A DNA stretch of 64,000 nt, taken from IMG/VR virus record IMGVR_UViG_3300031867_000009, positions 32,001-96,000 of that record; one strand, 5' to 3'. Shown piece after piece: positions 8,615 to 63,625 of this stretch. The notes under the pieces are model-generated. The model was given only the letters and a program-made list of their open reading frames with translations, was not told where the DNA came from and did not search any database. The position numbers and the translations under genes are program-made. This DNA comes from a virus. Lineage: Duplodnaviria > Caudoviricetes. How positions within the stretch are numbered: the stretch's first letter is position 1; each line of letters opens with the position of its first letter.

Positions 8615-8866
8615 TTACTCCTCGTCCTCGCTTGGAACAAAAGTTTTACCTGCATCTGTCAGAACTACGTATGTGATTGGCTTCTCTGCGCCTTCAACCT
8701 CAACCTTTTCTCTTGCTGCGAGACCCTTCTTTGTGAGGTCAGTTACGTTAGCGCCTACCGAACGCTCTGTTCTGTCAAGTGCCTGTGCAAGCTCAGGAAT
8801 GGAAACCTTTCCGCCATTAGCCTTTACATACTCAAATACTTCATTACTCTTCTCTGTAAGCTTCAT
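8615..8866 (-). CDS. small winged-helix DNA-binding protein
   Basis: ELAQALDRTERSVGANVTDLTKKGL wHTH pattern, LTDAGK. Confidence 0.7.
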   Translation of the reverse strand: MKLTEKSNEVFEYVKANGGKVSIPELAQALDRTERSVGANVTDLTKKGLAAREKVEVEGAEKPITYVVLTDAGKTFVPSEDEE

Positions 8867-8943
8867 AATTTTGTTTTCTCCTTGTTTAAATAAATTTTTA
8901 AATGATTTGTTTTCGCGAAAGTTATCCTTAACTTTCTATAAAT

Positions 8944-31182: not shown

Positions 31183-32985
31183 ATGAGCCTACAAGTATGG
31201 CTACCTCTTACGAATGGAACATTAAAACAACAAGGGTTAAAAAATATATCAGCTACTATTGGAGGAACAGTAGGATTAACTGATGTGGGTAAATTGGGAA
31301 AATGTGCAACTATTGGTACTGCTGCGGGTGGAATTACTTTACCAGCATCTGCAATGACCTCTTTTACTGAATGTTCAGTTGCTTTTTGGATTAATATAAC
31401 TTCTTGGAATACTGATTGGGACACAATCTTTCAGGCGGGATTAGGTTCTACCCCATGGAATAACTATATTTTTGGGATATTAAGAAACCAAGGTAATTAT
31501 TTATGTTTTACCGTGTCTAATGGTTCTAGTACTTCTAGTGGTAGTTATGCTAGTTCTAATTTAACGGTTGGACAATGGATGCATTTGACTTTTACTTATG
31601 GGAATGGTAAATGTAAAATTTACATAAATGGAGTATTGGATAAAGAATATTCAACTTCAATAACTCCAAATTTTGCTGGTATTACCCATATTGCCATTGG
31701 ACGGAGTACAAATGGTTCTAACTATCAATGTAAGTGTAAGTTAAATGATTTTAGAATATATGACCATTGCCTTTCTCCAATGGAAGTTAAAGAACTTGCA
31801 AAAGGACTTGTATTGCATTATCCTTTAAATAGACAAGGCTGGGGACAGGAGAACCAACTTAAAAATAGTAATTTCTTTAATGGAACTAATTCTTGGTATA
31901 GTGTTAATTCTTCGTCTATTCGGGTCGAAACTAAAGATGGATACACATGCGGCACTGGAACAAAAGGGACTTCTGCTAATATAATAGGACAAACCAGTGC
32001 TGCATATACTGGTGGTATAGCTGTTGACATTACAGTTTCAGCAAAAGTATATGTAACAGAAACAGGTACTTTTGGTGTTGGTCATTGGATTAGTACAACC
32101 CAAGTGAGTGGTTGGCAAAGTATGTCTGGTAGTAGAGTTTGGAATACTACCAATAATTTATCTGTTGGGTGGAATTATATTAGTACAACACTTAAAAATG
32201 CTACAAATCAATATACTGGTTCAATTGTTACTGCTTTTTCTTATAGTGGAACAACTTTTTGGATTACAGATGTAAAATTAGAATATGGTTCAATTGCAAC
32301 TCCATGGTGTCCAAATTCATCTGATACATTAGCCACAACAATGGGCCTCAATTCTACAACCGAATATGATTGTTCAGGTTTTTGTAATAATGGAAGTAAA
32401 ATGACTGATACTATTACTTATACTTCTGATACTGCAAAATATGCTGTTTCAACTCATTTTAATGGTACATATGATGGTATTATAATTGAAAATTTAGCAT
32501 TAAAAGATATGATTAATTCTGCAATAACATATGCATTTTGGATTAAGCCAGAAAGCGAGTCTGGAGTACGGTCTATTTATTTTGGAAGTTATTCAGGTAT
32601 TTCATGGTCAGTTGAAAAAACCGCGGGTAATCAGTTGCGTTTATATTGGAATGGTTCACCTGATGAAACTTGTTCAGGCGCGATAATTACTGATGGGGTA
32701 TGGCAACACATATGTATTACAAAGAATGGAACAAATGATGTAAAAGTATATATTAATGGAATACAGAAGTGGACATCTACAGCTACACATAGTAGTTTAA
32801 ATTTTCCAACAACATATAGAATAGGACGAGACACACGTAATAATGATGGTACTCCATATAAAGGATTAATGTCCGACTTCCGCATCTATGCAACCGCCCT
32901 ATCCGCCGATGACGTCAAATCCCTCTATCAAAACTGCGCGACCATTGATCCAGATGGAACAATTCGCGGACAAATTCGAAGTTAA
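31183..32985 (+). CDS. LamG/concanavalin A-like lectin domain protein (putative receptor binding)
   Basis: two LamG domains (SVAFWI..W.HL..YINGV..NDFRIYD; AFWIK..WQHI..SDFRIYATALS) flanking a CBM-like region. Confidence 0.8.
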   Translation: MSLQVWLPLTNGTLKQQGLKNISATIGGTVGLTDVGKLGKCATIGTAAGGITLPASAMTSFTECSVAFWINITSWNTDWDTIFQAGLGSTPWNNYIFGILRNQGNYLCFTVSNGSSTSSGSYASSNLTVGQWMHLTFTYGNGKCKIYINGVLDKEYSTSITPNFAGITHIAIGRSTNGSNYQCKCKLNDFRIYDHCLSPMEVKELAKGLVLHYPLNRQGWGQENQLKNSNFFNGTNSWYSVNSSSIRVETKDGYTCGTGTKGTSANIIGQTSAAYTGGIAVDITVSAKVYVTETGTFGVGHWISTTQVSGWQSMSGSRVWNTTNNLSVGWNYISTTLKNATNQYTGSIVTAFSYSGTTFWITDVKLEYGSIATPWCPNSSDTLATTMGLNSTTEYDCSGFCNNGSKMTDTITYTSDTAKYAVSTHFNGTYDGIIIENLALKDMINSAITYAFWIKPESESGVRSIYFGSYSGISWSVEKTAGNQLRLYWNGSPDETCSGAIITDGVWQHICITKNGTNDVKVYINGIQKWTSTATHSSLNFPTTYRIGRDTRNNDGTPYKGLMSDFRIYATALSADDVKSLYQNCATIDPDGTIRGQIRS

Positions 32986-56234: not shown

Positions 56235-57380
56235 ATGAATTGTATAATAGATGGAATTGATTTTTATAACCTCGAAGCAATGAAATACTTCTCGCCTTCG
56301 ACTTCGTGGAGTGAAGATAAGAAAAAGCAAAATGCTATGGATAAAATCTTCAGCGGCGAATGGTGGGGCGCGCAAAAGCGTGATGGCATATTCTGTATGT
56401 GTGGAAAAAACCCAGAGGGTGAAATCTTTCTACGCCCGCGCGCAAAGAATACGAAAGGCGAGTTCGTAAATAAGGTTGATTGGGTTCCACAGATTCATTG
56501 GTTTCTCAATGAGTTAGAGCCAGGAACAGTTCTTCTTGGAGAGGTTTATCTTCCAAGAGATGAACAGGCAAAGACAACCACTTCCATAATGAATTGCTTA
56601 CTTAAAAAGTCACTCGCGCGCCAAGCCAAGCCAGAAGATAAATTGCATCTTTATGTATTTGATATTCTTGCAGATGCCGGTGAATCGTATCTGAATATGA
56701 AGGCAATTGATAGATTCCTTCGTGTGAGCGATTATGAAAAGAAATACAGTGGCTCATTCATAGACTGGGCAGAGTATAAGAATGGAAAAGAATTGTGGGA
56801 TATGTTGCAGATTCTTTTAGCAGAAGGTTTTGAGGGGGTAGTAATTACTTATCAAGATGCTCCATACCAGCCAGGTAAAAGGTCGAACAAAGTTTCTCTG
56901 AAAATTAAAAAGGAACTTCAAGATACTGTAGATTGTATCGTCATTGGCGCGAATCCACCGACGAAAGCATATAGCGGAAAAGAAATAGAAACTTGGGAGT
57001 ATTGGTTTGATGAAATTAATAATGGCTGTATTCTTGCTTCTGTTTACTTTGAAAGTCAGCATGAATCAATTTATAACAAGTATGTTAGTGGAGAACCAGT
57101 ATATCCAGTAACTAAAAACTGGTTCTATGGTTGGGCAGGCTCATGGAAGCTTGGTGCGTATAAAGATGGTAAGCTGATTCAAATTGGAAGCCTCAGTGGT
57201 CTCACTGATGAGCAGAAAGAAAATTGGAAAGACTACGTAGGTAAGATTGTTGAAGTTAGTGCGATGGAGACAAGTGAAAATCAAGAGGGTGGTAAGGGAC
57301 TTCGTCATCCGAAACTAATTGACATTAGAGATGATATTGCTCCTGAAGAATGTACATATGAAAGGATATTTGGCTTATGA
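56235..57380 (+). CDS. ATP-dependent DNA ligase
   Basis: motif I QKRDG, LLGEVY, YVFDIL, EGVVI, KIKK, LRHP..IRDD. Confidence 0.85.
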   Translation: MNCIIDGIDFYNLEAMKYFSPSTSWSEDKKKQNAMDKIFSGEWWGAQKRDGIFCMCGKNPEGEIFLRPRAKNTKGEFVNKVDWVPQIHWFLNELEPGTVLLGEVYLPRDEQAKTTTSIMNCLLKKSLARQAKPEDKLHLYVFDILADAGESYLNMKAIDRFLRVSDYEKKYSGSFIDWAEYKNGKELWDMLQILLAEGFEGVVITYQDAPYQPGKRSNKVSLKIKKELQDTVDCIVIGANPPTKAYSGKEIETWEYWFDEINNGCILASVYFESQHESIYNKYVSGEPVYPVTKNWFYGWAGSWKLGAYKDGKLIQIGSLSGLTDEQKENWKDYVGKIVEVSAMETSENQEGGKGLRHPKLIDIRDDIAPEECTYERIFGL

Positions 57381-57544
57381 TATTCTCAGTTATAGTAGCT
57401 AGTGTATTTGTCTTTGGCGGCCTCGTCTGTTATGCAAGTTGTTGGGCGGCCGGCCGCGCGGATGAACGAAGCGAACGATATTATTATCGCAAGAAATTAG
57501 AAAAAGAAGTGAAAAAGCAGAGTGAAAATTTGAAAAATAAATAA
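57377..57544 (+). CDS. small membrane protein (not in ORF track)
   Basis: MIFSVIVASVFVFGGLVCYASCWAAGRADERS..., ATGA-coupled. Confidence 0.55.
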   Translation: MIFSVIVASVFVFGGLVCYASCWAAGRADERSERYYYRKKLEKEVKKQSENLKNK

Positions 57545-57558
57545 ATTTTCTGTATAAT
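57530..57558 (+). promoter_or_regulatory. sigmaA-type promoter
   Basis: aaatTTGAAA-17-TATAAT. Confidence 0.7.
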
Positions 57559-57581
57559 ATATATAGAAAGTTGAGAGAAAA

Positions 57582-57755
57582 ATGAATATCGACGAACTAT
57601 ACGAACAAGCAATGTATCAAGAACATCTTTACTCCATTTGTCAACATCAATGTGATGGTATGAGTAATTGCAAGATGTTCGCGGAGGGTAATGACATAGG
57701 TTGTCTTAAAGCCTATCACTATTATCTCAATTTAATTAAAAATTTACAAACTTAA
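57582..57755 (+). CDS. small Cys-rich protein (not in ORF track)
   Basis: 57 aa MNIDELYEQ..C.HQC....C........C. Confidence 0.5.
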   Translation: MNIDELYEQAMYQEHLYSICQHQCDGMSNCKMFAEGNDIGCLKAYHYYLNLIKNLQT

Positions 57756-57758
57756 AAT

Positions 57759-57787
57759 TTGACGAAATTAAAAAATTCTGCTATAAT
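57759..57787 (+). promoter_or_regulatory. sigmaA-type promoter of the ncRNA operon
   Basis: aaatTTGACG-17-TATAAT with extended TG; no plus-strand ORF of 60 aa or more for 1.27 kb downstream. Confidence 0.85.
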
Positions 57788-57793
57788 TATATT

Positions 57794-57896
57794 ACAAAGT
57801 GAGATGAGAATTAATTTTCTGATTTGGGAAATACATTCACAGGGTGGTGGTCTCTTACTTTCTTTCCTTTCTACCACCACCCTTCCTTACAAGCGT
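57794..57896 (+). ncRNA. candidate sRNA: GC stem with 21-nt pyrimidine anti-SD loop
   Basis: agggtggtggt/accaccaccct stem, loop ctcttactttctttcctttct; bounded by promoter and ribozyme 1. Confidence 0.6.
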
Positions 57897-57978
57897 GGCA
57901 TCATGTAAGTGCCTCCCCGTGGCGATGCTGGAGATATGGGTTTTACTCCGTGGAGACTACCCTTGAGCTAAACTTACA
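57897..57978 (+). ncRNA. HDV-like self-cleaving ribozyme 1 (with P4)
   Basis: P1 ggcatc/gatgct, P2 tgtaagt/acttaca, P3 gcc/ggc, L3 tccccgt, GG for P1.1, P4 gggt..accc, J4/2 gCtaa. Confidence 0.85.
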
Positions 57979-58271
57979 GGCTACCAGGTGAGCAAATGTT
58001 CTGAAAGTCTTATTGGAAAGGATTTGCGGTTAGCTGACCTTAAAGCGACTAGTCAATGGTTGAAGACTTGGATGTGCGGCACCGGCCCCTAAAAGCGGAG
58101 ATACCATATTCTTGGTTTATGAATAGTCAATATAGACCTAAGCTTTGATAAAGCCGTTCAGCTTGCGAAAGGGTTAAGGGTAAGCCGGTTCTAACACACA
58201 TCGAAGGTCGTAGGGAGTATGTGTGAGGAGTGTATGCGTCCCTTAAGGAGTGACGTCCAACGCAGTTTTAT
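57979..58271 (+). ncRNA. unassigned structured RNA (~290 nt)
   Basis: stems aagtctt/aagactt, accggc/gccggt with ccct/aggg, acacat/atgtgt; no ORF; lies between ribozymes 1 and 2. Confidence 0.6.
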
Positions 58272-58324
58272 GGCACCAAGATAGACGCCTTCTCGCGGCG
58301 GTGCTGATTTCGACTAAGTCTATC
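58272..58324 (+). ncRNA. minimal HDV-like (theta-type) ribozyme 2
   Basis: P1 ggcacc/ggtgct, P2 gatagac/gtctatc, P3 gcc/ggc, L3 ttctcgc, no P4, J4/2 aCtaa. Confidence 0.9.
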
Positions 58325-58975
58325 CGAATAATAAGAACTCAGTGTAGATGCACGAAACCAGTGTGCTGAGACACAGGCCGAAAGAGTCAGAGCAACGAAG
58401 CAAGGATACTTGTGGATAGCTGCTGTGCTGTTAGGGCGACCGAAGCAGTGTAGAGCGGTGAGCCGCCAAACTCAAGGTGTGGTGCATTTATTATCGCAAT
58501 CAAAGGCAGCATGTGAGTCGGAGGAGTAATAGAAGCGACGATTAAGAGTCGTCGCTGAATCCGAGTTAGGTATAGGTGTGGCAACTTATACACACCTCGG
58601 AAATGCCAACAATCTTCTTTGCCGTGAAGCGGAGAAATCCGTGTATAAGACTTGCGTGTCGCGTGCGAGTAGCCCAGAGGCAAGACTCAGATAGAGTATG
58701 ACAAAAGCAAGGATGCAGGAAAATCCTTTTATTGCCGTAAGGTGGGTGGAAGTTAGGGGTAGTCATTCCCCTCTAGGATTTGGCGAGAGCTGGGGCATAT
58801 TAGGTTAGGGTCGCTCCCTAGTCTTCGGATATGTCTCCCTAGTGGCTGAATATGGTTGAAGATAGTATGTGTAGGGTGAAAGCTCCTTATTGTTCGTAAA
58901 TATCTAAAGCGAATAGAACCGCATAATAGTTCTATCCAGTGGTGACGGGACCACAGATAATTTCCCGTCATATAT
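58325..58975 (+). ncRNA. large structured RNA (~650 nt; ROOL/GOLLD size class, family unconfirmed)
   Basis: 5' cgaataataag pairs with cttattgttcg (58886-58896); internal hairpins gcgacga/tcgtcgc, agggg/cccct, taggg/cccta, tgacggga/tcccgtca; GC-rich, no plus-strand ORF. Confidence 0.7.
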
Positions 58976-59027
58976 GACACCATTGGGGTTGCCTTCTCGT
59001 GGCGGTGTCGTTTAAAACTAAAACCCT
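58976..59027 (+). ncRNA. minimal HDV-like (theta-type) ribozyme 3
   Basis: P1 gacacc/ggtgtc, P2 ggggtt/aaccct, P3 gcc/ggc, L3 ttctcgt, no P4, J4/2 aCtaa. Confidence 0.85.
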
Positions 59028-59064
59028 TGTTTTTTATTATATAAGAAAAGGAGAGTTATAGGCG

Positions 59065-59355
59065 ATGATAATTTCAAGTGAGATTACAGGAAAAACATAC
59101 AAGACAGTAGAAGAGTGCCTTGCAGCAGAGAAGAAATTTGTAGAAGAAAAAGAAGCAAAAGAGAAAGCAGCAAAAGAACTTGAAGCAAAGAAAGATGAGG
59201 CTTATAAGAAGGCTATCGCAGCTTGTGATGAGTATTTGAAGCTGTGCGGCGTTGAAGTTGAATTTGGCGACCACGGTTATACTATGAAATATCATAGTGA
59301 TGGTAGTCTGGCTGATGCAATTTTTGAGGATATTCTTAATACAATGCTGAAGTAG
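59065..59355 (+). CDS. hypothetical protein
   Basis: SEITGKTY.TVEECL.AE pattern; AAGGAG SD. Confidence 0.75.
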   Translation: MIISSEITGKTYKTVEECLAAEKKFVEEKEAKEKAAKELEAKKDEAYKKAIAACDEYLKLCGVEVEFGDHGYTMKYHSDGSLADAIFEDILNTMLK

Positions 59356-59369
59356 AAAGGAGTGAGAGA

Positions 59370-59516
59370 GTGGTTAATATTAAGACGAATAAGCTGTTGG
59401 CTTTGGAAATTAGACTTCATAATTTGAAGAGTAATGGAAGAAATAACGACTCTCCCGGAGTTATAAGAAAGATTGAAAGAGAAATAAGACAGATTAAAGT
59501 ACACGGAGAGGTTTGA
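59370..59516 (+). CDS. small basic protein (not in ORF track)
   Basis: GTG start after AAGGAG; ..RLHNLKSNGRNNDSPGVIRKIEREIR.. Confidence 0.55.
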   Translation: MVNIKTNKLLALEIRLHNLKSNGRNNDSPGVIRKIEREIRQIKVHGEV

Positions 59517-59534
59517 TACCTCTCCTTTTCTTTT
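59505..59534 (+). terminator. intrinsic terminator
   Basis: ggagaggt-ttgat-acctctcc + tttt. Confidence 0.7.
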
Positions 59535-59545
59535 GGAGGATATAT

Positions 59546-59830
59546 ATGGGATTTAAATCAAATGGAATAAGGTGGACTTGGAGCGATAAGTCTACAACAC
59601 CATGTCCGAATTATCATACTACAACCACTAATACTGATGACTCGGAATTGGAAGAGATAACAAAAAAACTTAAAGAGAGTCAACTTACAATAAACACTGC
59701 CCTTCCAGCTGACCCACCAATACAGTATGGTTGGGTTTGTCCAAAGTGTGGCCGCAGTAATTCACCCTGGACGAGCACTTGTTGGTGTTGGGCATTGGGA
59801 CCGAATGGAGTACCAATTATAAAATGTTAA
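59546..59830 (+). CDS. Zn-ribbon protein
   Basis: GWVCPKCGRSNSPWTSTC; GGAGG SD. Confidence 0.7.
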   Translation: MGFKSNGIRWTWSDKSTTPCPNYHTTTTNTDDSELEEITKKLKESQLTINTALPADPPIQYGWVCPKCGRSNSPWTSTCWCWALGPNGVPIIKC

Positions 59831-59889
59831 AATTTTCTTTTTTATTATATTTTTGATATAATATAAGAAAGTAAGAAAGGAGATTTGTA

Positions 59890-60105
59890 ATGAAAAAAGT
59901 AGAAAAGATAGGCGAACTAAGGTTTTGTCTTGATGATTATAGAGATAGTATATATAATGAAAGTATTGATTTAATCTATAGTCTCTATGGTTCAGAGCCT
60001 GATGAAATCCTATCTCTTGATATATTCCGCGGTTATTGTAGACAATTTGCCGCAGCCATGGGTTATAGCGAAAAAAATATTGATGAAGTGTTTGGAGAAT
60101 GGTAA
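59890..60105 (+). CDS. hypothetical protein
   Basis: 71 aa, AAGGAG SD. Confidence 0.7.
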   Translation: MKKVEKIGELRFCLDDYRDSIYNESIDLIYSLYGSEPDEILSLDIFRGYCRQFAAAMGYSEKNIDEVFGEW

Positions 60106-61676: not shown

Positions 61677-61707
61677 CCTGGTCAGTGCGGCGTTGCAGGA
61701 GTATAAT

Positions 61708-62337
61708 ATGGCATATATTTATAAAATCACAAACAATATAAATCAAAAGGTTTATATTGGTCAAACAATTATGACTCCTGTACAGCGATGGCAAAAGCAC
61801 AGGAGTGATGCAAAATTAAATAAACCCTATCCACTATATAGGGCTATGAATAAATATGGTATTGATAATTTTTCATTTGAAATTCTCGAAGAAGTAAAAG
61901 TTGAAGAATTAGATGAAAAAGAACGATATTATATTAATTTATATCATTCTTATATTAATTTTGAAAATAGTAATGGATACAATGCTACATTGGGTGGTAG
62001 TAAAGGTAATCATTACTTTAATCCTTGTATTAATGAAGTTATTGAATGTGCTCAATATATGACTATTAATCAATTAGCTAATCATTTTGGGGTTGGATAT
62101 GCTACAATGAAAAATTATTTACATAATTATAATATTCAACCACAAAAAGGTAGAACTGGTGGTGGAGATAAAAGTATTGCTCAAATAGATATAAATACAA
62201 ATGAAATCATTCAAATTTTTCCAAGCATTGCTGATGCTTCAAGATTTTTTGGTAAAATACCAAAAAATTCTGGCATTAGAGATGTATTAAAAGGAAAAAG
62301 AAAAACTGCTTATGGATATAAGTGGAAGTATATATAA
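61708..62337 (+). CDS. GIY-YIG homing endonuclease with NUMOD1-like C-terminus
   Basis: YIYKITN..KVYIGQT..RW..H, ERYYI, GYN...GG; FPSIADA...KTAYGYKWKY. Confidence 0.85.
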   Translation: MAYIYKITNNINQKVYIGQTIMTPVQRWQKHRSDAKLNKPYPLYRAMNKYGIDNFSFEILEEVKVEELDEKERYYINLYHSYINFENSNGYNATLGGSKGNHYFNPCINEVIECAQYMTINQLANHFGVGYATMKNYLHNYNIQPQKGRTGGGDKSIAQIDINTNEIIQIFPSIADASRFFGKIPKNSGIRDVLKGKRKTAYGYKWKYI

Positions 62338-62382
62338 CAAAAATTTTATAATAGTATATTTTATCGGTAAGTTACCGTTATT

Positions 62383-62483
62383 TGACCACACCAGCGCGGC
62401 GATGCAGAAAGGTCGTTAAAAACAGGGCTGCCGCATCTAAAAAAAGAGTGGCTCGACCCACTGCTGCATAGCGGAGGGCCCAG
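62383..62483 (+). ncRNA. structured RNA candidate
   Basis: tgacc/ggtcg stem + ttaaaaa; gggc/gccc and ccgc/gcgg enclosing gtgg-ctcgac-ccac hairpin. Confidence 0.45.
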
Positions 62484-62494
62484 AGCTTCTTCTT

Positions 62495-62561
62495 GGGATT
62501 GTATCTGCGGAGAAAGGATTAGCGTCAGCTAGTTTAGGGAGTTCGAACCTTCCCAATCCCA
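62495..62561 (+). ncRNA. tRNA-like element (intact acceptor and T arms, aberrant D/anticodon arms)
   Basis: gggattg/caatccc, gggag-TTCGAAC-cttcc, anticodon-like stem with 4-nt GTCA loop, no CCA. Confidence 0.7.
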
Positions 62562-62566
62562 TCTAT

Positions 62567-62692
62567 TGTCGGACGGCTACCGACGTTAAATAAGGCACAG
62601 CGTTAGCATTGATTTGGTAGTTACACTACAGCGAAGGCCGGTTACATGGGAGAATAAGGAAACGGCAATGTGCTGCTTAGGAACAAACGCTA
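62567..62692 (+). ncRNA. structured RNA candidate with pistol-like 5' module
   Basis: gtcgg/ccgac + gttaaata; agcgtt/aacgct, agca..ttg/caa..tgct, gtag/ctac. Confidence 0.5.
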
Positions 62693-62731
62693 TATCAAAG
62701 AGGTCAAGAAAATTACCCTCCCTATTTATTT

Positions 62732-63062
62732 CGTAGGTAGACAAGCATTAAAAGTCACTAAGACAATAGGAGCCCTTGTAGTGGAAAGCAGTGGGGAGAC
62801 ACCACAGAAGGCGGCGGTGGACGGACAGAAGCTATATGCCAGACACAAATCCGCGTAAGCTACCTCAGTTACGAGTCGTTGAATCCACGTGGGATGCGCG
62901 TGATTGAAACTGCACGCCCTACGATTATATAGTTAATGCAGGACATAAGGGCCTGAGGTTGGCGGGCAACGATAAAATCCGAAACTGATGCAGACCTCTG
63001 CGCGCCTCTTAGGGGTAAGTCATTATGACGAAGCTTCCCTTACGCGTACCAGGCAGAGGTTG
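62732..63062 (+). ncRNA. structured RNA candidate (~330 nt, pseudoknotted)
   Basis: long-range cgtagg/cctacg, gcccttgt/ataagggc, acctcag/ctgaggt; terminal acctctgc/gcagaggt stem. Confidence 0.55.
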
Positions 63063-63077
63063 TTTTATAGGTGAATT

Positions 63078-63121
63078 GTGTATGCGGCCGCCCATGTTTA
63101 TACATGGACGACCGCGCGCAC
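63078..63121 (+). repeat. GC-rich hairpin before SD
   Basis: gtgtatgcggccgc-ccatgt-ttat-acatgg-acgaccgcgcgcac. Confidence 0.6.
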
Positions 63122-63365: not shown

Positions 63366-63546
63366 AACACAAGAAGGATATATACGACAAGATGCAATTA
63401 TTGATGCACATATTTCGCGTTATTATCCACAAACAATATTTTTTCGTTTGAGTTGTGGAGATGTGGTAAAGTTTTATGATTTTAAAACTCCTGAAGCCGC
63501 GCAGACAGCTTTAGAAAAAGTTATAGATGAATTAGATAGCGAGTAA
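63352..63546 (+). CDS. hypothetical protein
   Basis: MSWIKTQEG.. ORF; stop lies inside tRNA acceptor stem. Confidence 0.6.
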   Translation: MSWIKTQEGYIRQDAIIDAHISRYYPQTIFFRLSCGDVVKFYDFKTPEAAQTALEKVIDELDSE

Positions 63547-63625
63547 TGGCGTAATGGTATCGCACCGCACTGCTAATGCGGCCAACCGAGAGGTTGTCTG
63601 AGTTCGATTCTCAGTTACTCGGCCA
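63540..63625 (+). tRNA. tRNA-Ser(GCT)
   Basis: acceptor cgagtaa/ttactcg, G discriminator + CCA, anticodon arm ccgca-ctGCTaa-tgcgg, long variable arm caacc/ggttg, T arm ctgag-ttcgatt-ctcag. Confidence 0.92.

Follow-up and report, generated by a model that had tools for sequence, protein, structure and literature searches.

The ROOL gene discussed here lies in a 64,000-nucleotide (nt) stretch of DNA from a virus of the Caudoviricetes (positions 32,001 to 96,000 of IMG/VR record IMGVR_UViG_3300031867_000009), hereafter called the window, and is very probably part of a self-processing non-coding transcript that is cut by three theta ribozymes, a minimal type of hepatitis delta virus (HDV)-like ribozyme. 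From 5' to 3', the cassette consists of a leader, ribozyme A, a second non-coding RNA (the mid RNA), ribozyme B, ROOL, a short tail and ribozyme C (Table 1). ROOL RNAs are carried by phages and prophages, often near tRNA islands; they are abundant, their function is unknown, and they form hexameric or octameric RNA-only cages (PMC5737381, PMC12286853, PMC12990946). The source genome is a virus record of 135,306 base pairs (bp) that is rated complete by CheckV and holds a single ROOL copy, and the great majority of the sequencing runs that contain the stretch are metagenomes of bovine and goat gut (rumen). An earlier note on this DNA had proposed a structured RNA of about 650 nt between two minimal ribozymes (58325-58975), and these bounds are the base after ribozyme B and the base before the predicted ribozyme C cleavage site.

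The Rfam model of ROOL (RF03087) matches the plus strand over its full length (model positions 1-574 of 574, 591 nt, 304.8 bits, gathering threshold 99.1, E 3.9e-69) and is the one strong non-tRNA match in an Rfam scan of the whole window; the RNA family is therefore already known. GOLLD, OLE and raiA gave no match at the gathering threshold in the whole window and none at E<=10 in 56500-60000. The earlier note, which had wavered between ROOL, GOLLD and a new class, had foreseen that a strong match in such a search would leave only the processing route as novel, and this is how it turned out. The closing helix of ROOL is formed by 58325-58335 (CGAATAATAAG) and 58886-58896 (CTTATTGTTCG), with 11 bp including one G-U; it is the same pairing that had been picked out from the letters. 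Two further remarks of the note agree with the analysis: the region is GC-rich (0.46-0.50 over 57900-58800 compared with 0.32-0.42 in the flanks), and it has no substantial plus-strand open reading frame (ORF), the single one of at least 40 amino acids (aa) being a 41-aa ORF at 58576-58701. Minus-strand ORFs of 66-98 aa overlie the 305-bit RNA match and are judged to be mechanical. The last base of ribozyme B, 58324, directly adjoins the first base of the ROOL closing helix, 58325, and the two folds are not in competition because the ROOL alignment marks the five Rfam-aligned positions of the overlap as non-pairing. The ROOL of the window would, by homology with ROOLs of solved structure, assemble into a nanocage. 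The cassette had no blastn match among GenBank phages.

The flanks of ROOL share a repeated P3/L3 hairpin, GCC-TYCYCGY-GGC, which is a signature of HDV-like ribozymes. The core GCCTYCYCGYGGC is present in three copies in the window, where 0.06 would be expected by chance, and each copy (A, B and C) is part of a complete nested double pseudoknot (P1, P1.1, P2 and P3) with CTAA in J4/2. Ribozyme B (53 nt) has P1 GGCACC/GGTGCT, P2 GATAGAC/GTCTATC, P3 GCC/GGC, L3 TTCTCGC and a P1.1 of C-G and U-A, with a G-U at the cleavage site, the catalytic C at 58314 and the predicted cut at 58271/58272. Ribozyme C (52 nt) has P1 GACACC/GGTGTC, P2 GGGGTT/AACCCT, P3 GCC/GGC and L3 TTCTCGT, with the catalytic C at 59018 and the predicted cut at 58975/58976. 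Ribozyme A, which together with the mid RNA lies upstream of the coordinates given in the earlier note, has P1 GGCATC/GATGCT, P2 TGTAAGT/ACTTACA, P3 GCC/GGC and L3 TCCCCGT, a G-U at the cleavage site, the catalytic C at 57968 and the predicted cut at 57896/57897. With 82 nt and a 38-nt P4 insertion (57930-57967), it is an exception to the minimal form without P4. Ribozyme A homologues in loci L218 and L158 have an equally long P4 and compensatory changes in P1. The P4 itself is conserved there (L158:1706-1786 and L218:1330-1411), with an apparent compensatory change of GGGT/ACCC versus GAC/GTC, and a small pseudoknotted P4 domain on an otherwise minimal ribozyme is therefore suggested. L218 has a homologue of ribozyme C in the corresponding place.

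In the window, a covariance model derived from relatives picks out A, B and C alone (49.9-62.6 bits), the next match having 14.8 bits, and the bracketing of the RNA by two minimal ribozymes, as the note had it, is borne out by B (62.6 bits) and C (matched over 58976-59028, 51.1 bits). A search of the whole genome returned the same three ribozymes and no others, none of them at a tRNA. Since these are all the theta ribozymes of the genome and all are within the cassette, they appear to serve the cassette and no tRNA. The only tRNA in the window, Ser-GCT at 63540-63625, is without a theta ribozyme. The HDV-type ribozyme families of Rfam 15 gave nothing at E<=10 in 56500-60000 and nothing above gathering threshold in 13 related loci; the theta subtype is not captured by the Rfam 15 models. 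Judged by sequence and predicted fold, the elements flanking ROOL are genuine theta-type minimal HDV-like ribozymes, with self-cleavage predicted at three sites.

Relatives of these ribozymes are common in phage sequences. An IMG/VR scan for the ribozyme core returned more than 119 loci, and outside the window 73 of 123 core matches have the complete HDV-like fold. In 26 of these 73, the predicted cut lies 0-2 nt from the 3' end of a tRNA called by ARAGORN, a property that had not been selected for. Cutting at tRNA 3' ends is the published hallmark of theta ribozymes, which self-cleave in vitro and are inactivated by a C-to-U change at the catalytic position (PMC10879173). The window ribozymes thus appear, by sequence and fold, to belong to the same family as those that cut at phage tRNA 3' ends. 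In a first covariation set of 50 distinct sequences, 98.8 % of the cells in the four helices are paired, compared with 33-51 % in slid controls, in a set that was pre-filtered for P1 and P2 pairing and is partly circular. For this reason, the count was redone on an independent set of 35 hits of the covariance model, which was built on P2 and P3 only and applied to ROOL-ascertained loci. Here P1, which entered neither the model nor any filter, is 92 % paired, and five of its six pairs show double-sided changes; the first pair of P3 is GC in 25 and AU in eight hits, and the inner P1.1 pair is CG in 13 and UA in eight. The G1-U pair is present in 31 of these 35 hits, which had not been selected by the pattern, and the catalytic C of J4/2 is invariant (35/35). 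Taken over both sets, 96.5-98.8 % of cells are paired, versus 33-55 % in the slid controls, and double-sided changes are seen in 5/6 pairs of P1, 7/7 of P2, 1/3 of P3 and 1/2 of P1.1.

The other parts of the transcript are also recognizable. A sigma-70-type promoter precedes the cassette, and its layout is repeated upstream of the cassettes in L060, L066 and L223; the primary transcript likely starts near 57795. No plus-strand terminator was found from this promoter through the cassette to the ORFs starting at 59065, the gap between the cassette and the first downstream ORF included. The leader hairpin (stem GGGTGGTGGT / ACCACCACCC) has homologues upstream of the first ribozyme in L060, L066/L054 and L223, where the stems covary and the loop ..TTTCCTTTCT.. 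is conserved. The mid RNA has no Rfam family at E<=10 and no excess folding stability (minimum free energy (MFE) z-score -0.31). Its homologues number just four to five and are kept in sequence rather than through covariation; a 5' module of about 65 nt is conserved in L054, L066, L223 and L218, and in related phage contigs the mid module is placed before a ribozyme or fused to ROOL. The 71-nt tail is folded more stably (MFE -18.5 kcal/mol, z -2.98, two hairpins). Its first hairpin (58913-58919 / 58929-58935) and the second element (58939-58971), with gtggt (58939-43) pairing to accac (58950-54) and gacggg (58944-49) to cccgtc (58964-69), are present as the earlier note had described them. The possible pseudoknot that it saw in these pairings would, as a full H-type pseudoknot, have loops of zero length and is sterically doubtful; a plain hairpin of 7-9 bp, which is also the MFE structure, fits the second element equally well. 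The tail element recurs directly after ROOL in L218 with one compensatory pair. The first downstream ORF has its syntenic counterpart just after the cassette in L054, L066 and L218.

Table 1. Features of the ROOL cassette and its surroundings (window coordinates).
Feature	Position	Strand	Evidence or remarks
Sigma-70-type promoter	57759..57787	+	TTGACG-17 nt-TATAAT, extended -10 TG; 11/12 matches
Leader hairpin	57842..57882	+	10-bp GC-rich stem, pyrimidine-rich loop
Ribozyme A, HDV-like	57897..57978	+	Covariance model, 49.9 bits
Mid RNA, 293 nt, non-coding	57979..58271	+	RNA contigs, four studies
Ribozyme B, minimal HDV-like (theta)	58272..58324	+	62.6 bits, E 8e-14
ROOL RNA (RF03087), full length	58314..58904	+	304.8 bits, Rfam
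3' tail, 71 nt	58905..58975	+	Hairpins, z -2.98
Ribozyme C, minimal HDV-like (theta)	58976..59027	+	51.1 bits, E 8e-11
First downstream ORF, 96 aa	59065..59355	+	AGGAG-like site ahead; no Pfam family

Evidence that the cassette exists as RNA comes from Logan contigs of four metatranscriptome runs, from four rumen studies, which were compared with 57600-59300. The pieces listed form two blocks, 57913-58227 and 58302-58906. In run X2, for example, a 295-nt contig (57929-58223) and a 568-nt contig (58311-58878) were found, both with 100 % identity, and no listed piece spans the ribozyme B cleavage site. The flanking coding ORFs, which served as a control for silent stretches in the same comparison, had no contig, and the cover is therefore argued to be RNA and not carried-over DNA. 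As assembled contigs, these data cannot define RNA ends; all they establish is that both blocks, mid and ROOL, occur as RNA and came out as separate assemblies. The leader (57600-57884), the junction (~58228-58301) and, from 58907 onward, the tail and ribozyme C have no contigs, which is of no use for placing ends or for arguing that the tail is removed. One contig, X16 (57913-58213), begins and ends with adapter letters, which hints at a discrete fragment and may also come from a single amplified insert.

It might be argued that the three elements are relics without activity, or purely structural modules with a likeness to HDV-like ribozymes, and that the RNAs are made by host RNases or by separate transcription starts and stops. 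Ribozyme C, which closes P1 with G-C instead of the usual G-U wobble, as do two of the 35 relatives, fits such a view, as does the absence of any Rfam HDV family at E<=10 on the three elements; in addition, their activity is a prediction from sequence. This explanation is nevertheless improbable, as none of the 35 independent relatives departs from the catalytic C and all four helices covary, including the P1.1 of only 2 bp. The family includes ribozymes whose predicted cut falls exactly at a tRNA 3' end, members of it cleave in vitro (PMC10879173), and no internal sigma-70-like plus-strand promoter or terminator was found between the two RNA blocks.

In the favoured mechanism, transcription would run from the strong promoter through the cassette into the downstream ORFs, and the three ribozymes would fold during synthesis, each cutting at its own 5' edge. 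Ribozyme A would release a leader hairpin RNA of about 100 nt. The second predicted product consists of ribozyme A and the 293-nt mid RNA (57897-58271, 375 nt), with its 3' end made by ribozyme B, and the third of ribozyme B, ROOL and the 71-nt tail (58272-58975, 704 nt), with a 5'-OH and a 2',3'-cyclic phosphate. The fourth would be a downstream mRNA that starts with ribozyme C. Because HDV-like ribozymes cut at their own 5' edge, ribozyme B would stay on the 5' end of ROOL, which would not be bare. In this way, the ribozymes would separate ROOL from the adjoining RNAs and give it defined ends with no need for host enzymes, and these ends may have a stabilizing effect; the same task probably falls to flanking tRNAs, acting through RNase P and RNase Z, at most other ROOL loci.

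HDV-like cleavage leaves a 5'-OH and a 2',3'-cyclic phosphate, which are the substrate of RtcB. The fragments between the ribozymes could consequently be joined by a host ligase of the RtcB type into circular RNAs, such as a circular ROOL with ribozyme and tail, and the closing helix does bring the 5' and 3' ends of ROOL together. This is very unlikely: the joints listed for the four RNA runs comprise a single forward skip, with nothing that links 58975 back to 58272, and a search of the phage genome found no RtcB, PF09414 RNA ligase or CCA-adding enzyme, with a host enzyme being possible.

The arrangement is not restricted to the window. A ROOL-only pattern, tuned on 14 ROOLs, returned 114 IMG/VR loci, 104 of which were confirmed by a profile of those 14; the confirmed ROOLs form 64 clusters at 95 % identity. 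An Rfam re-check of 12 ROOL-bearing loci found full-length ROOL in all of them (272-351 bits). Within 30 nt of the 5' end of ROOL, a theta ribozyme is present in nine of the 64 clusters, a tRNA in seven and neither in 46. Within 300 nt the numbers are 19, 22 and 21, respectively, and within 300 nt of the 3' end they are four, 28 and 27. As in the window, ribozymes are present on both sides of ROOL in four clusters (L060, L223, the L218 group and L125). The distance from the ribozyme 3' end to the ROOL start, by Rfam bounds, is -11 nt in the window and -8, -4, -3, -3, 0, 0, +5, +7 and +16 nt in nine other clusters, and the weaker ribozyme hits at ROOL loci all have the complete fold. In many clusters, tRNAs are found 7-30 nt from the ROOL ends. 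Ribozymes thus recur as punctuation of ROOL, mainly in phages and in a minority of cases; tRNAs fill this role more often. Two other patterns were also used. The first ROOL word pattern returned three loci (L002-L004), none with ROOL. A second, independent ROOL pattern gave, among the matches listed, almost only chance matches, with three new ROOLs in 115 loci, which is no test of the robustness of the flank frequencies.

The relatives have the promoter, the leader hairpin and the downstream ORF in common, and differ in the content of the cassette. In L060, the order is ribozyme, ROOL, an RNA of ~250 nt and ribozyme. In L218, an A-like ribozyme is followed by ROOL, a 183-nt tail that opens with the tail element of the window, and a C-like ribozyme, and in L223, a ribozyme is followed by a short mid module fused to ROOL, an RNA of ~200 nt and another ribozyme. 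L054 has a mid-like RNA, a ribozyme and ROOL, directly followed by the ORF, and L066 has a mid-like RNA, a ribozyme and the ORF, with no ROOL. The ribozymes behave as separators between exchangeable RNA modules. The non-coding RNA of ~200-250 nt between ROOL and the downstream ribozyme is common to L060 (2807-3045, minus strand) and L223 (5606-5802, plus strand); it is unrelated to the tail of the window, has no Rfam match and is a candidate RNA module.

Theta ribozymes were also observed in other surroundings. In L068, L084, L085, L092 and L121 (for example L092:2351-2555), a theta ribozyme lies 205-211 nt after a tRNA-Leu(TAG) and 60-290 nt before ROOL, and this constant spacing points to an unnamed RNA of ~205 nt whose 3' end would be set by the ribozyme. 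Tandem identical theta ribozymes with no tRNA nearby are present in L025 (2144-2339) and L056 (two copies 143 nt apart) and would release the intervening RNA of ~90 nt. In L021 (9375-9498), a tRNA with the amber-reading CTA anticodon, called tRNA-Pyl by ARAGORN, has a theta ribozyme directly after it (0 nt), which matches the suppressor-tRNA association reported for theta ribozymes.

Such loci bear on another explanation, which is possible but not likely. The ribozymes would be active, and their purpose would be to make clean 3' ends for the RNAs upstream, namely the leader and the mid RNA, or to insulate or stabilize the downstream mRNA, with host nucleases trimming ROOL to its closing helix and thereby removing most of ribozyme B and the tail. 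HDV-like ribozymes leave the upstream product scarless, which is the logic of their role at tRNA 3' ends (PMC10879173). In L054 and L066, the ribozyme follows a mid-like RNA, in L066 without any ROOL, and in the five loci with tRNA-Leu it would end another RNA. The listed contigs on the ROOL block are also confined to 58302-58906; trimming, however, is not inferable from contigs, which cannot define ends. Furthermore, the ribozyme directly adjoins ROOL (-8 to +5 nt) in L060, L218, L135, L078, L194, L125 and L211, in L060 the leader alone lies upstream of the ribozyme, and in four clusters and the window a second ribozyme follows ROOL. Release of ROOL itself by the ribozymes is therefore still preferred.

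Several points weigh against this preferred reading, in addition to the partial circularity of the first covariation set, the G-C pair of ribozyme C and the nature of the contig data. Neither a ribozyme nor a tRNA is present within 300 nt upstream in 21 of the 64 clusters, and the ROOL sample, having been collected with one sequence pattern, represents one part of the family. A close relative, L054, has no 3' ribozyme, and its ROOL runs straight into the ORF leader. In a scan of cellular genomes, which gave mostly chance matches and 14 ROOLs, a ribozyme was nearby in one of these 14 ROOLs of cellular or metagenome-assembled genome assemblies, which are too few for a rate.

Both components of the system have been described before. 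With the ROOL family (Weinberg et al. 2017, PMC5737381; Kretsch et al. 2025, PMC12286853), the RNA of the window shares the full-length match, the closing helix, the length of ~590 nt, its phage and rumen origin and its presence in RNA libraries. Published ROOLs are described near tRNA islands, with nothing on how their ends are made, whereas self-cleaving ribozymes adjoin ROOL here, and its 5' end would keep a 53-nt ribozyme and its 3' end a structured tail of 71 nt. With the theta ribozymes of gut Caudoviricetes (Kienbeck et al. 2024, PMC10879173), the ribozymes share the double pseudoknot of ~51-53 nt without P4, the catalytic C that opens J4/2 and the origin from gut or rumen phages. They differ in that three copies flank ROOL and a second non-coding RNA, none of them by a tRNA, and in the 38-nt P4 of ribozyme A.

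Punctuation by tRNAs, as in the tRNA arrays of other ROOL and GOLLD loci, follows the same principle, as processing signals directly at both ends would release ROOL from a longer transcript. It depends on host RNase P and RNase Z and gives 5'-phosphate and 3'-OH ends, whereas ribozyme punctuation would be autonomous and give 5'-OH and cyclic phosphate ends. The RNA of the R2 retrotransposon (for R2, see PMC11331408) also has an HDV-like ribozyme at its 5' end. As proposed for ribozyme B, this ribozyme detaches a functional RNA from a co-transcript upstream and remains on the 5' end of that RNA; R2, in contrast, is a retroelement of eukaryotes whose RNA is coding and has only one ribozyme, whereas ribozymes in series and non-coding products are found in this phage.

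No paper linking ROOL with HDV-like or flanking self-cleaving ribozymes was found in a full-text literature search, which left most subscription journals outside, so that 'unreported' is provisional. The theta ribozyme paper (PMC10879173) and its supplements, when searched, had no mention of ROOL, GOLLD or Rfam. A known RNA family and a known ribozyme family are thus combined in a pairing, with ribozymes replacing tRNAs as punctuation, that is apparently unreported. The suggestion of the earlier note that ribozyme-defined ends would be a new biogenesis route for such RNAs gains support from this and from the recurrence of the arrangement in independent phage contigs, with cleavage predicted.

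Some further elements were observed in the window and in the related contigs. The ORF upstream of the cassette (56235-57380) was considered as an RNA ligase and rejected; it encodes an ordinary ATP-dependent DNA ligase and no RNA ligase of the DRB0094 type, which is the type enriched among phages with theta ribozymes. Downstream of the cassette, a GIY-YIG/NUMOD1 homing endonuclease ORF is present at 61693-62337, and 3' of it lies a stretch of ~740 nt (62340-63078) without a convincing ORF, in which no Rfam family was found at the gathering threshold. Among the tRNA genes of the ROOL-bearing contig L223 is a match to a group I intron (RF00028, 54.4 bits, 8738-8925).

Few bacterial or phage RNAs of unknown function are as large as ROOL, which draws attention as an RNA-only nanocage; its native termini and biogenesis are undescribed. 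The recurrent ribozyme at the 5' edge, which is sometimes accompanied by one at the 3' side, offers testable native ends for ROOL. ROOL would be cut from longer transcripts by interchangeable signals, either ribozymes or tRNAs. An RNA fused to the 3' end of ROOL is displayed radially and leaves the cage undisturbed (PMC12515178), and a terminal ribozyme and tail are therefore structurally plausible. It can be predicted that natural cages carry extra modules at the termini, where the cage tolerates and displays engineered cargos (Ling et al., as summarised in PMC12515178).

The non-tRNA theta ribozymes (526 in annotated genomes and 7704 overall) have been left without a function (PMC10879173), and the arrangement described here offers a concrete role for them, by which two open questions, the ends of ROOL and the orphan theta ribozymes, are linked. 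On balance, we lean slightly towards theta ribozymes being a general, host-independent punctuation for phage non-coding RNA operons, beyond the processing of tRNA 3' ends. A sizeable share of the orphans would then mark the ends of ROOL and of unnamed RNAs, the latter being, with the same slight preference, the mid RNA, the RNA of ~200-250 nt after ROOL in L060 and L223, and the RNA of ~205 nt after tRNA-Leu in five loci. The native ROOL cages of these phages would carry a ribozyme and a structured tail at the ends of every protomer, with 5'-OH and cyclic-phosphate ends, and the positions of the ribozymes may be used as signposts to new phage non-coding RNAs.

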